32,000 nt of DNA from NCBI GenBank assembly GCA_964514965.1, contig CAZETV010000001.1, forward strand, positions 510,001 to 542,000. The letters run 5' to 3'. Source of the stretch: Candidatus Hadarchaeota archaeon. Lineage in GTDB: Archaea > Hadarchaeota > Hadarchaeia > Hadarchaeales > Hadarchaeaceae. Position 1 is the stretch's first letter. Each line of letters begins with the position of its first letter. The position numbers were made by a program, and so were the translations under genes. Below are positions 28,016 to 32,000 of this stretch, in pieces. The notes under the pieces are model-generated. The model made no database searches. It was given only the letters and a program-made list of their open reading frames with translations, and was not told the origin of the DNA.

Positions 28016-28138
28016 GCGGGGATAACTCAACCTGGGAGAGTGTCGGTCCGTCGTTGAGACTATCTCACACGGGGCAAAACTGAAGACACCCAGTCGGACA
28101 TCCGAATGTTGGGGGTTCAAATCCCCCTCCCCGCACCA
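28016..28138 (+). tRNA. tRNA gene with encoded CCA and a ~46-nt intervening sequence in the anticodon arm; isotype unresolved (Asp-GUC by one parse, Phe-GAA by another)
   Basis: The acceptor pairs GCGGGGA with TCCCCGC, followed by A and CCA. The D arm is ACTC-AACCTGGGA-GAGT and the T arm is GGGGG-TTCAAAT-CCCCC. The anticodon-stem halves are TCGG(T) at 28043 and TCCGA at 28101..28105. Total length is 123 nt against 77 expected. Confidence 0.8.
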
Positions 28139-28277: not shown

Positions 28278-29870
28278 ATGGGGAAAAAATCTCAGACCCG
28301 GGATGCGATTTTGGCCGCGCTGTCCGACGGCAGGTCCAAGAGCCACCGGGACATCGTCAAGAAAACTGGGCTCACCCCGAGTGCCGTGTGGAACACCCTT
28401 CTCAGGTTCTGGAAGGAAGGGGCGGTCCTGCGCACGAAGGAGCCCATCTGCGAATCCGAAAAAGTGTTTCGAGGACGGGCTGGCTTCGTCAGGATCCTGA
28501 GGCCCTATCACCTCTACCTGCTGAAGCCCGAGGAGAGGGGGCAGTTGACCCCCGATGGGCACCAGTTCGTGGGCTTTTCGAAAAAATATCTCGACGTTAG
28601 GGGGGGCGGTAAGGAGAGCAAGGCCAAACTCATTTTGAACATCCTCAAGAAGAACTCGCGCAGGGCTTGGTTCTCGAAGGAAATAGCGGATGCCCTCAAG
28701 GACAGGGGAGTCAAACCCCGCGATGTTATGTCGAACGTCCGGAGATACGAAAGGGCAGGCCTCGTTTACGTCCGGGGCTACCGCACGGAGGAGAGGGAAA
28801 CCCCCTTCAAGGAGGGCTACCTGATAACTTGGGTGGACCAGGCCAAGCCCAGGCAGCGGGCGCTGGACGAGGCGATCGGGCGGACGAGCCTAGCCCTAGA
28901 GAAAAATCGCCTGAGCAGCCCCCTCGTGCAGAGGATCCACATGGTCAGGGACATCATCATGGAATCCTCAAAGCTGAGGGAGCTCGTCGGCACCGCCTAC
29001 ATCCAAAACAAGCTCGGGTGCTCCGAGTACGAGGCCGAGGGGGCGATCACCAGGGCTTTCCAGCTTTATCCAGATCTCAGGGAGGTGAAGCTGTTCAACG
29101 CGTACAAGTACTTCTACCACCCGTCAATGGGCGAGGTGGAGCTCCGAACCGCAATAAAGATGAAGGAGAACTACGTGCGCATCGTGAAGGGCAGGGACAA
29201 CCGCGTGGGGCACAACTGGGAGGCCGTGCCCGAGTGGTTCATCGATAAGTTTACCACGGGTGCTAGGTTCTGGACTCAAGAGCACCGGACGAAGGGGATG
29301 GACCCGAGGCGGATAGCCCTGTACCTGATCAAGCCAGTCGGGGAAAGGAGGAACAGCGCCGAGGTCGACCGGGTCTGGGAGGTGACTCCCGGGGTTTTCT
29401 CCAACCCCGTGACCTACGTGCTCTCGTGCAAGTGGGGCCTAGTGAACAAGAGGGATGTCGACGACTTCCTGGAGGTGCTGAAGTGGAGCAAGGAGTTCGG
29501 GGTCAACACGCCCGACGGGAGGCGGGTGAAGCAGGGCGTGATAGGGATATTCGCGGCAGGCTCGTTTAACCCCAAGGAAGGGGTGAAGCTGAAGGACGGG
29601 ACCCAGGTGAGCCTGGCCACCTACGCGAGCCGGATGAACATCCAGCTCCTGAAGGCCGTCGACTTCAACCAGAGGCTGCACGAGCGGGGATGTCCGAAAG
29701 CCGTAACCGTCCAGAAAATCTGCAAAGTGGCCAAGAATGAGGGAGAGGTCAGGGAGATTCTGGACGCGATCTGGGAGGAGCCCAAGAGAGGCGAAGGAAT
29801 TTTGGGCAAAGCCATGGAGAAGAACAAAGAGCTCTACAAGTTCGAGAGGACGCTCGAGGAAAGCCGATAG
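28278..29870 (+). CDS. Triple winged-helix protein with a C-terminal Mrr/PD-(D/E)xK-like (restriction-endonuclease-fold) domain
   Basis: 530 aa, preceded by AAAGGGGGGAGAC. There are three wHTH-like units (RDAILAALSDGRSKSHRDIVKKTGLTPSAVWNTLLRFWKEGAV; FSKEIADALKDRGVKPRDVMSNVRRYERAGLVYV; a third around LGCSEYEAEGAITRAF). The C-terminal region reads GHNWEAVPEWFIDKF...EVDRVWEV...YVLSCKWGLVNKRDVDDFLEVL...GIFAAGSFN. Confidence 0.6.
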   Translation: MGKKSQTRDAILAALSDGRSKSHRDIVKKTGLTPSAVWNTLLRFWKEGAVLRTKEPICESEKVFRGRAGFVRILRPYHLYLLKPEERGQLTPDGHQFVGFSKKYLDVRGGGKESKAKLILNILKKNSRRAWFSKEIADALKDRGVKPRDVMSNVRRYERAGLVYVRGYRTEERETPFKEGYLITWVDQAKPRQRALDEAIGRTSLALEKNRLSSPLVQRIHMVRDIIMESSKLRELVGTAYIQNKLGCSEYEAEGAITRAFQLYPDLREVKLFNAYKYFYHPSMGEVELRTAIKMKENYVRIVKGRDNRVGHNWEAVPEWFIDKFTTGARFWTQEHRTKGMDPRRIALYLIKPVGERRNSAEVDRVWEVTPGVFSNPVTYVLSCKWGLVNKRDVDDFLEVLKWSKEFGVNTPDGRRVKQGVIGIFAAGSFNPKEGVKLKDGTQVSLATYASRMNIQLLKAVDFNQRLHERGCPKAVTVQKICKVAKNEGEVREILDAIWEEPKRGEGILGKAMEKNKELYKFERTLEESR

Positions 29871-29888
29871 CGTTCCGAACTCAATGAA

Positions 29889-29917
29889 GGGCGGGCCTCA
29901 TCGGGATTTGAACCCGG
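29889..29917 (-). other. tRNA T-arm/3'-half-like remnant (minus strand CCGGGTTCAAATCCCGATGAGGCCCGCCC)
   Basis: A GGTTCAAATCC T-loop consensus is flanked by an imperfect stem. No matching 5' half, D arm or anticodon arm could be built on either side. Confidence 0.3.
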
Positions 29918-30109: not shown

Positions 30110-32000
30110 GTGAGTAAAATTTCAGAAACTGAGCAACATCGTAGACTAAAGGAGCTTTTAGCTGAAAAACTGAAAGAATGGTTCGGCGTTTGTGTACCAG
30201 AGTACCCTTCAGCTGGCCATGAACTGGACATATTTGGCGTCACGCCAGAAGGCGTCTCTATCTATATTGAGATAATATGGTCTCCATCAAGAACTCATTT
30301 TTTGAATGACATAAATATGCTTCAACAATCTGATGCAGACGTAAAAGTGGCGATTGCGAGTCCTGAAATAATCTCAAAAGAGGAGTTTCGCAGGGAATTT
30401 TCGAAAGTTGCTATTGCGCAGCGTCGCGAAGGGCAAGTATTCCATGGAGAGATGTTGAACGGTGAGAAAATTCTTCAAAACAAGGGTTTTATGGACAGTG
30501 ATCTGAAGGGACTCTTTACACAGCTGGTAGCACAAGTAGCACCGTTAAAGAAAAGACCTCCTAGACCAAAGTTAAAGTTCCCCCAACCTCAAATCTCCGA
30601 TACTTTGCCTGATGAGATAAGTGACAGACTTCTATCAAACCTGTTTCCGGTAGCCAGTATGCCTAAGTTTCCAGATGTGGAACAACGGCGCTTAATGGAG
30701 TTTTTGAACAACGCCCTTTATACGTACCTGAAATCAAACCCGAGTTTGCAACAGCATCCCATATTTAGAAGCACCTATTTTTACAAGCCGGATAATAGCA
30801 AGCCGAGGGTGGTCGATGGGCGAATCGTAGCATCGCCAGAATATCTGCCTTCCGGGGAGCTACACTATTGGGTGCACGACTCTGTAACTTTGAGGTTTGT
30901 CGCGTTAGAAGAGATGATTTTTCTACTTGTGGAGCCATGTTACGTTTTCACCGAGGATGAGGAGAAGTTACTTCCCAAAGAAAAAGCCGGGCCACTTACA
31001 ACCAAAAAAATTGCCCATGAGTTCAACAGGCAATATTTGCAGCACATAAGATTTTGGATTTCTACTCTCGCAACTGACAAAGATAAAATTACAATACCAA
31101 CTAGTCTGGGCTCGATAGTTATTTCTGTAAGCGAAGCTGGGGTAAGTGTAAACTTTGGGGGGGGGAGTCAGGTGAATTCTCAACATGATTTCCAAAGCTG
31201 GCATGTAAATGAGCCGGAATTGTTTTTCGGAGGCGGTAATAGACATGTCGACCAGAAAATCGGACTCACACTTTACGGGCCAGCCCAGCTTCCTGATAAG
31301 GCCGATCTCATAAAGTCGATTAATGTGGGGATCGTGGGTACAGGTGAAACAGTTGGTCTCGCCGAAATGTGGATGGAAAAACTAAAGCGTGAGATACCAA
31401 GCAAAAAAGAGTCTGTACATTCTCCTTCATTCATGGGATTTGAAAAGACGTTCAATTGCGTACTTAATGTCGCAGATCAATGGAAAGAGATCATCCCTGA
31501 AAAAGAGATACAGCAACTTGCAGATCTAGAAAAATATAAAGATTGCGTAAATAAAGCTGTCGATTTGTTTGTAGAAAGGCTCCAAAGCTTGGTAGAACGA
31601 GAGCCGCGACCGCAAATCGTTATCTGTGCCATACCTCAAGCTCTTATACGTATAATCGGCAGTCGAAAAACATCTGTAGCAGTTCCAGAAGAAAATGATG
31701 TTGCGGATCCTCTACCCGAAGCGATAGATTTCCGGAGAGCATTGAAAGCTAAGGCGATGGGATTTGGGATACCAACTCAGCTGGCTAAAGAGAGTACATT
31801 TACAGGAAAGACGACCACAGAGGAAAGGCCATTACAAGATGAAGCTATGAGAGCTTGGAACTTCTCTGTTGCTCTGTACTATAAGGCTGGAGGGCTTCCG
31901 TGGAGATTGGCAGAGGCTTCTCCAAGGACTTGCTATATCGGCGTATCTTTCTACAGGGAATATTTTCTAAGCGCAGCCAGAACAAGAACCAGTTTAGTTC
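30110..32000 (+). CDS. Prokaryotic Argonaute (partial, 630 codons, 3' end beyond the window): N-terminal nuclease-like domain + N/L1/L2 (APAZ-like) region + MID + start of a catalytically degenerate PIWI
   Basis: Hand translation from GTG at 30110 finds no stop to 32000; an in-frame TAG at 30059..30061 closes the frame upstream. MID/PIWI hallmarks are DQKIGLTLYGP, DFRRALKAKAMGFGIPTQL and AWNFSVALYYKAGGLPWRL, then TCYIGVSFY. The ORF is absent from the track only because it lacks a stop in the window. Confidence 0.85.
   Translation, partial: MSKISETEQHRRLKELLAEKLKEWFGVCVPEYPSAGHELDIFGVTPEGVSIYIEIIWSPSRTHFLNDINMLQQSDADVKVAIASPEIISKEEFRREFSKVAIAQRREGQVFHGEMLNGEKILQNKGFMDSDLKGLFTQLVAQVAPLKKRPPRPKLKFPQPQISDTLPDEISDRLLSNLFPVASMPKFPDVEQRRLMEFLNNALYTYLKSNPSLQQHPIFRSTYFYKPDNSKPRVVDGRIVASPEYLPSGELHYWVHDSVTLRFVALEEMIFLLVEPCYVFTEDEEKLLPKEKAGPLTTKKIAHEFNRQYLQHIRFWISTLATDKDKITIPTSLGSIVISVSEAGVSVNFGGGSQVNSQHDFQSWHVNEPELFFGGGNRHVDQKIGLTLYGPAQLPDKADLIKSINVGIVGTGETVGLAEMWMEKLKREIPSKKESVHSPSFMGFEKTFNCVLNVADQWKEIIPEKEIQQLADLEKYKDCVNKAVDLFVERLQSLVEREPRPQIVICAIPQALIRIIGSRKTSVAVPEENDVADPLPEAIDFRRALKAKAMGFGIPTQLAKESTFTGKTTTEERPLQDEAMRAWNFSVALYYKAGGLPWRLAEASPRTCYIGVSFYREYFLSAARTRTSLV

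Follow-up and report, generated by a model that had tools for sequence, protein, structure and literature searches.

Short prokaryotic Argonaute (pAgo) systems are sorted by the effector that accompanies them, be it SIR2, TIR, DREN or HNH, and clade S2B is described as holding "additional uncharacterized effectors" (PMC12738770). The effectors named for this clade in the literature are DREN, Mrr-like, HNH, SMEK and restriction endonuclease (REase) domains, and the searchable literature on them makes no mention of Bathyarchaeota together with APAZ. Two clade S2B systems, SPARDA (DREN/DUF4365-APAZ) and SPARHA (HNH-APAZ), are the closest described counterparts of a protein encoded in a 32,000-nt stretch of DNA from Candidatus Hadarchaeota archaeon (contig CAZETV010000001.1, positions 510,001 to 542,000; hereafter "the window"). 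The gene is a GTG-initiated open reading frame (ORF) of 834 aa that opens on the forward strand at window position 30110 and ends past the window, at the equivalent of position 32614. As in SPARDA and SPARHA, a slicer-dead MID-PIWI module is combined with an APAZ adaptor, and a nuclease-type domain stands N-terminal of APAZ. The explanation we favor, at a probability of about two in three, is that this N-terminal domain of 150 aa is a divergent PD-(D/E)xK nuclease, and that it serves as the effector of a nuclease-associated (clade S2B-like) short-pAgo abortive-infection system.

The parallels with SPARDA and SPARHA extend to the pAgo chains, which are the best PDB sequence matches; to APAZ, which is closest to the SPARHA HNH-APAZ chain 9om4_A; and to gene organization, since the relatives of the window protein are also two-gene operons. 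Unlike SPARDA and SPARHA, the effector is neither HNH nor DUF4365 by any model and lacks the (D/E)xK lysine, the hosts are archaeal metagenome-assembled genomes, and in the source genome effector-APAZ and pAgo read as one chain. In this last respect the protein resembles SPARSA-A, the clade S1A SIR2-APAZ-pAgo system, which likewise joins effector, APAZ, MID and PIWI in one polypeptide; the PADLOC fusion models PDLC02384 and PDLC02420 align over aa 223-816. In contrast to SPARSA-A, the effector has a nuclease fold and is not a SIR2 NADase, the pAgo appears to go with S2B-type pAgos, and the fusion hangs on a single homopolymer G and is unique among the family members found.

Evidence that the N-terminal ~147 aa are a real conserved domain came from an exhaustive HMMER search of 1.84 billion representative proteins. 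With matches clustered at 50% identity, the domain was recovered in 151 clusters at E <= 1e-3, 134 at <= 1e-10 and 46 at <= 1e-30, which is far beyond chance. It lies at the very N-terminus of 217 of the 219 homologues collected, and the GTG start of the ORF coincides with the N-termini of these homologues; the peptide quoted in the initial annotation is the exact translation of window 30110-30544. Existing domain libraries do not recognize this family. The first ~150 aa match no Pfam, NCBIfam or PADLOC model, no Pfam family recurrently matches the domain when 110 family members are scanned at E <= 10, and PDB sequence searches with the domain or with the family profile return APAZ matches only. 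No homologue was found in phage and plasmid collections.

The fold of the domain was predicted with AlphaFold2 for aa 1-150 on an alignment of 86 sequences. The model has a predicted local distance difference test (pLDDT) score of 92.1 and a predicted template-modeling (pTM) score of 0.87, and consists of a helix (8-25), three strands (27-34, 37-44 and 50-56), a second helix (61-73), a fourth strand (78-83) and a helical extension to about residue 147. The order helix-strand-strand-strand-helix-strand, with a mixed sheet, is the topology of the restriction-endonuclease-like core, and the secondary structure that the initial annotation had read from the letters agrees with these elements. When the model was compared with the PDB using Foldseek, the best matches were 3dnx (SPO1766, MmcB-like, E 1e-3) and the NucS and EndoMS structures 2vld and 5gke (E 1e-3 to 3e-3, probability 0.97-0.99), and the other top matches included SfsA, Exo5, Card1, Can2, Cas4 SSO0001, I-Bth0305I, YaeQ and EcoT38I. 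Among the predicted viral structures of BFVD, the best named matches were mostly MmcB-like, Mrr, endonuclease-like, Vsr-like, DUF559, VRR-NUC, resolvase and Cas4 proteins. Almost all top matches in the two databases are PD-(D/E)xK proteins, and the predicted fold is of restriction-endonuclease type, as the initial annotation had proposed. No DREN-APAZ chain was among the 50 best matches.

The best structural neighbors, the C-terminal nuclease domain of NucS/EndoMS (PF01939) and MmcB-like 3dnx (E 1e-3 to 3e-3, probability 0.97-1.0), also offer a residue-level comparison. In a local profile-profile comparison (hhalign) with 10 NucS proteins from the source genome and its relatives, the alignment falls in exact register: E31 pairs with a Glu, D40 with the catalytic Asp, E54 with the Glu of ExK and I56 with its Lys. 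K79 pairs with an Arg present in all 10 NucS proteins and, in a greedy alignment, E6 pairs with the Glu of the NucS "GSE" helix. The two families thus share the register of a helix-1 Glu, strand-1 Glu, strand-2 Asp, strand-3 Glu and strand-4 basic residue, and the D-x13-E spacing of the domain is identical to the D-x13-E-x-K of the NucS encoded in the same genome. Unlike NucS, the domain has Ile or Val in place of the ExK lysine, lacks the NucS N-terminal DNA-binding domain, and carries a conserved H10/K14 pair and a C-terminal helical extension (aa 85-147) that are specific to its own family; nor is there a significant match between sequence models, as NucS_C (PF01939) does not match the domain in Pfam even at E <= 10.

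The other families that the initial annotation had named for comparison fared in the same way, with a likeness of fold and no match to a sequence model. Mrr_cat (PF04471) and Hjc (PF01870) gave no Pfam or NCBIfam match. Nor did SMEK, a family added to those of the annotation, the presence of a SMEK model in the NCBIfam set being unconfirmed. DREN/DUF4365 (PF14280) gave no Pfam match, and the PADLOC REase-APAZ models align only from ~aa 156-190 on, which is the APAZ part. A search for DUF4365 in 66 genomes of the phylum and in control genomes found none, so that no DREN profile could be built. In hhalign, the domain matched Hjc at E 0.64, and the control comparison of NucS with Hjc failed too; these thin local profiles are thus insensitive, and the lack of a match to other families means little. 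By predicted fold and acidic motif, the domain belongs to the PD-(D/E)xK superfamily, from whose canonical form it departs at the lysine.

Conservation of individual residues was counted over 136 full-length copies of the domain. D40 and E54 are found in all 136 and E31 in 135, so the three acids singled out by the initial annotation are conserved at 99-100%. The D-x13-E spacing is conserved with them, as is the hydrophobic residue in the slot of the canonical (D/E)xK lysine, position 56 being Ile in 117 copies and Val in 18 (135/136 together) and basic in none. The initial annotation had missed a second conserved set (97-99%) on helix 1, formed by E6 (132/136), H10 (135/136) and K14 (135/136). 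W57 (134/136), D67 (132/136), K79 (132/136), K99 (131/136) and R95 (123/136) are also strongly conserved. The whole set E6-H10-K14-E31-D40-E54-K79 is retained in 125 of the 136 sequences, down to ~30% identity. Two residues had been proposed to take the place of the lysine. R61 was rejected, its position holding K or R in only 81 of 136 copies, while K79, which is also invariant in the 86-sequence alignment used for structure prediction, appears from its conservation and modeled position to be the better candidate.

With tight hairpins, E31, D40 and E54 would be expected to face one another across three neighboring antiparallel strands. A row of acids on adjacent strands is the usual metal-binding arrangement of the PD-(D/E)xK superfamily, and variants of the superfamily without the canonical lysine are known, such as BamHI and BglII. 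In the proposed active site, the three acids would stand side by side on strands 1-3 and could bind the catalytic metal; the usual lysine would be replaced by a buried Ile, with the basic residue supplied from elsewhere. The most likely supplier is K79, at the start of strand 4 beside strand 3, where sheet topology would bring it near D40 and E54. Helix 1 may contribute as well, or may provide the basic residue in place of K79, through its E6/H10/K14 face.

Additional support for an effector role came from the company that the domain keeps. Besides APAZ proteins, it forms the N-terminal module of nSTAND3, NACHT, nSTAND1/5 and Avs2-like proteins with pentapeptide, TPR or HEAT C-termini, a position that in STAND/Avs-type NTPases belongs to oligomerization-activated effectors; on these proteins, too, the family is without a Pfam, NCBIfam or PADLOC model. 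In a census of 110 cluster representatives of at least 190 aa, the partners were nSTAND3 (12), NACHT (9, often with pentapeptide and TFIIB-like repeats), nSTAND1 (4), nSTAND5 (4), AbiTii (9) and APAZ-type Aga models (~10), with single cases of Avs2-like, TPR, HEAT and candidate defense families. Judged by the family APAZ profile, APAZ is present in 58 of the 219 collected members and in 11 of 150 representatives at 50% identity. The family occurs in uncultured archaea, and the named hosts are Bathyarchaeia/Bathyarchaeota, Nitrososphaerales and one Asgard archaeon. In APAZ proteins the domain precedes APAZ in the N-terminal slot that SIR2, TIR, DREN and HNH occupy in characterized systems (PMC12738770). 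An N-terminal module that recurs on different sensor and switch platforms has the distribution of a deliverable effector, not of a sensor. The initial annotation had left open whether the domain is an active nuclease or a sensor or oligomerization module; this distribution favors the former, and cleavage would be the expected activity.

Several results weigh against a nuclease. The structural matches are modest, with a best E of ~1e-3 in the PDB and 8e-5 in BFVD and template-modeling scores of ~0.4-0.5, which suggests that the domain is a divergent member of the superfamily. The alignment with NucS, at E 0.03-0.05, is not significant alone, no sequence model of a nuclease family in the Pfam and NCBIfam scans matches the domain, and the AlphaFold2 model of the full 834-aa protein is poor (pLDDT 68.6), too poor for a fold search. 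The canonical lysine is absent from every member, so the site is non-standard and possibly inactive or of other chemistry. The absence of the lysine from all 136 sequences could mean that the domain has the restriction-endonuclease fold with no catalysis, acting in DNA or RNA binding, sensing or oligomerization while another host factor kills the cell. Inactive derivatives of the fold exist, and the Rpb5 N-terminal domain is among the Foldseek matches; two membrane proteins, a transglutaminase-like protein and a PrsW protease, are also encoded downstream on the same strand. However, inactive derivatives normally lose the acids, whereas in this family, whose architectures are very diverse, D40 and E54 never vary and E31 is 99% conserved, the N-terminal slot of STAND and APAZ proteins is the effector slot, and neither the downstream nor the upstream genes are conserved beside seven related operons. 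We consider an inactive domain unlikely.

It is less likely again that the domain is an active phosphodiesterase of this fold with another substrate or chemistry, such as an RNase, a tRNA-directed nuclease, or an enzyme that uses H10 and K14 for metal-independent His/Lys cleavage. In favor of this reading, the E6-H10-K14 set is as conserved as the acidic core and is not needed by the standard DNases of the fold, and the structural neighbors include Card1 and Can2, nucleases that cleave both DNA and RNA. The invariant acidic triad nevertheless points to metal-ion catalysis, and the closest neighbors (NucS/EndoMS, MmcB-like proteins and SfsA) are DNA enzymes or of unknown function. A divergent PD-(D/E)xK nuclease that acts as effector is thus the reading that we retain. 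A more far-reaching version can be put forward only tentatively, and we would not give it even odds: that the domain founds a hitherto undescribed family of lysine-relocated PD-(D/E)xK nucleases, with the site completed by the strand-4 lysine and/or the helix-1 His/Lys; that it is a general, oligomerization-activated suicide effector of archaea (Bathyarchaeia, Nitrososphaerales, Asgard and this small-genome lineage), mounted on short pAgo/APAZ, STAND and AbiTii platforms; that its pAgo systems are a new short-pAgo type beside SPARTA, SPARSA, SPARDA and SPARHA; and that the G tract described below is a true site of slippage, at which the system switches between a single chain and two subunits.

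By analogy with SPARDA and SPARHA (PMC12738770, PMC12205087, PMC10810196), a mechanism can be proposed in which the catalytically dead MID-PIWI would bind a small guide, and pairing of the guide with invader DNA would alter the conformation of APAZ and PIWI and drive the oligomerization of pAgo/APAZ units. The oligomers would gather the nuclease domains, each tethered on a disordered 25-residue linker, and indiscriminate collateral cleavage of nucleic acids would be switched on, so that the infected cell dies or arrests. STAND-fused copies of the domain might follow the same logic, with activation by oligomerization of the NTPase.

The remainder of the protein is readily classified. PADLOC PNTD1-PNTD2 models match aa 190-348 as APAZ, and with the family APAZ profile, E is 2e-26 for the HNH-APAZ chain 9om4_A and ~1e-9 to 1e-8 for DREN-APAZ chains. 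The PADLOC pAgo_I model is spanned end to end by a MID-PIWI module without N or PAZ domains. In the PDB, MID-PIWI is most similar to the SPARHA pAgo 9om4_B (5e-84) and to the SPARDA pAgos 9qbp/9qbl/9jsb (1.9e-77 to 5.6e-70), while matches to SPARTA pAgos (~1e-50) and to 8in8 (7e-26) are weaker, the clade being judged from this ranked PDB similarity. The initial annotation had called PIWI degenerate, and this was borne out by a MAFFT alignment with a long pAgo that looks catalytic and is encoded in a genome of the same family: the catalytic positions hold S (GVSF), S (IHKSS) and R (RFSRE), against D, D and H in the long pAgo (AVDVGR, LLRDGD and RLAHK), the first position being read by motif because of a gap in the alignment. 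With S/S/R in place of D/D/H, the slicer site is lost. The long pAgo with these intact-looking motifs is encoded at locus L034 (G050:C88), in the same GTDB family, so this small-genome archaeal lineage has both active long and inactive short Argonautes. In the window protein and its two closest relatives (P0161 and P0055), APAZ is ~55-75 residues shorter in mid-domain, at aa ~250-310, than the ~425-aa majority form.

The fusion of the domain-APAZ part to pAgo depends on a single homopolymer. The APAZ-to-MID junction falls on nine G's, the sole G9 in the 1.28-Mb genome, and an in-frame GTG stands six bases past the tract, in the context GTGAATTC. In the Nitrososphaerales relative L007, pAgo starts at the same GTGAATTC and reads VNSE..., against VNSQ... 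in the window. If the tract held 8 G, the upstream frame would end ...NFGGGVR-TGA, with the TGA overlapping the GTG, and the locus would encode a 354-aa domain-APAZ protein and a 480-aa pAgo. The closest relative, P0161 (80% identity over aa 6-352), ends ...SCWGGVR-TGA, overlapping the ATG of MNAQHYFQS..., while P0055 (69% identity) ends ...NFGGGIK, and an ATGA overlap is found in L036. Comparison of the P0161 and L007 junctions with the 8-G frame indicates that the window sequence exceeds the canonical two-gene arrangement by exactly one G. At each of seven related loci, a short pAgo gene (488-513 aa) directly follows the domain-APAZ gene (~383-451 aa as called); the two genes overlap by 4 nt in L007 and L011, and no further conserved neighbor was found around the seven. 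Domain-APAZ is a gene separate from pAgo in every relative examined, and there is no other fused member among 219 family proteins. The description of the domain as the N-terminal domain of the Argonaute thus holds for the ORF as read here and not for the relatives, where it is part of a separate APAZ protein; it was counted as the Argonaute N-terminus because the frame of the APAZ partner runs into the pAgo frame across the G9 tract. In one further homologue, P0221 (286 aa; JGI contig, 1158 bp), residues 1 to ~83 of the effector domain run directly into a PIWI C-terminus of ~215 residues; this protein could be a deletion derivative or an assembly chimera.

These comparisons are consistent with two views of the single chain. 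It may be an artefact of assembly, the true genome having 8 G and an ordinary two-gene operon: the junction lies on the G9 run, the 8-G ending GGGVR-TGA over GTG resembles the GGVR-TGA over ATG of P0161, the fusion stands alone in its family, and the small number of contigs in the genome (3) hints at long reads. Against this, nearly all homopolymers of at least 8 nt in long ORFs of the genome keep the frame, with about one suspicious case, and a tract of this kind is also likely to slip in vivo. Moreover, SIR2-APAZ-pAgo fusions show that single-chain forms work (PMC9097488). The suspicious case is an A8/T8 run (G000:C1:690944-690951) in a gene resembling an MFS transporter, where deleting a single base lengthens the frame from 205 to 299 aa, transmembrane-like on both sides; it is the one plausible homopolymer frameshift found, as a pseudogene or an assembly indel. 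Other candidates for homopolymer frameshifts were rejected as mostly adjacent separate genes, such as rpe and tal. As this is the only plausible case of a broken gene, indels are not widespread in the assembly. No orthologue from which the length of the G tract could be read was found in 45 genomes of the same family, and a metagenome scan for the junction with 7-11 G gave no match. We regard the fusion as probably real and an artefact as the lesser, though considerable, possibility. The choice leaves the nature of the domain unchanged, as an artefact would be compatible with any reading of it.

The Ago gene lies in a compositionally mosaic stretch that starts after an intron-containing tRNA gene at 28016-28135 (+ strand; Rfam 48.4 bits, with a long intervening sequence and without an ARAGORN call). 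Gene content and guanine-cytosine (GC) content switch directly 3' of this tRNA, as expected for a tRNA-integrated island; GC is 59% in the upstream winged helix-turn-helix gene and 44% in the Ago gene, against 48% in the genome. The upstream gene (window 28278-29870, + strand) encodes a 530-aa protein with an N-terminal winged helix (HTH_24) and weak Csa3/CARF-like PADLOC matches. It was rejected as a conserved partner, as no homologue adjoins the seven related operons. The spacer between the two genes contains, at window 29903-29915 (- strand), a 13-nt exact copy of a tRNA T-loop (GGGTTCAAATCCC) followed by an acceptor-like GC-rich stretch, which may mark a former integration site or be due to chance; a second tRNA at 29885-29915 was rejected, the match being limited to the 13 nt of the T-loop, with no Rfam match. 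Downstream, just past the window end (L035, G000:C1:542000-557000), follow, in order, the transglutaminase-like membrane protein, the PrsW-family protease and DUF365, then an M.Eco57I-like methylase with an Eco57I/MmeI-like type IIG enzyme that carries an HSDR_N nuclease domain, a rhomboid protein and Rad50/Mre11. The Ago gene is absent from the 13 other species of the genus, which fits an accessory defense island. The coordinates of the features within the gene are collected in the table.

Table. Features of the domain-APAZ-pAgo gene, in window coordinates.
Feature	Position	Strand	Residues	Basis
N-terminal PD-(D/E)xK-fold domain, putative effector	30110..30550	+	aa 1-147	AlphaFold2, Foldseek, homologue clusters
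Helix-1 triad, spacing i, i+4, i+8	30125..30151	+	E6 (30125-30127), H10 (30137-30139), K14 (30149-30151)	Conservation
Acidic core, with the position of the canonical Lys	30200..30277	+	E31 (30200-30202, strand 1), D40 (30227-30229, strand 2), E54 (30269-30271, strand 3); I56 (30275-30277) at the Lys position	Conservation; NucS register
Candidate relocated catalytic lysine, strand 4	30344..30346	+	K79	Conservation; NucS alignment
Flexible Pro/Lys-rich linker, effector domain to APAZ	30554..30634	+	aa 149-175	pLDDT < 50 in full-length model; no conservation
APAZ domain	30635..31159	+	aa ~176-350	PADLOC PNTD1-PNTD2 models; family profile against PDB chains
G9 homopolymer, APAZ/pAgo junction	31157..31165	+		Only G9 of the genome
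In-frame GTG, ancestral pAgo start codon; TGA at 31173-31175 would be the APAZ stop in the 8-G frame (GTGA overlap)	31172..31174	+		Comparison with relatives
MID-PIWI short pAgo	31196..32000, then 614 nt past window end	+	aa 363-834	PADLOC pAgo_I, E 5.8e-159

The domain would be one of the uncharacterized effectors of clade S2B, and an essentially archaeal one. It is invisible to current domain libraries and defense-system finders, and operons that contain it are therefore now annotated as hypothetical proteins. With the acids kept and the lysine moved, it would be well suited to testing how plastic active sites are in the PD-(D/E)xK superfamily. Developers of nucleic-acid detection tools, who already take an interest in SPARDA and SPARTA, would find a compact single-chain, guide-activated nuclease attractive too. 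Because the domain is reused on STAND and AbiTii platforms, one assay would annotate ~150 protein clusters across several archaeal defense systems.

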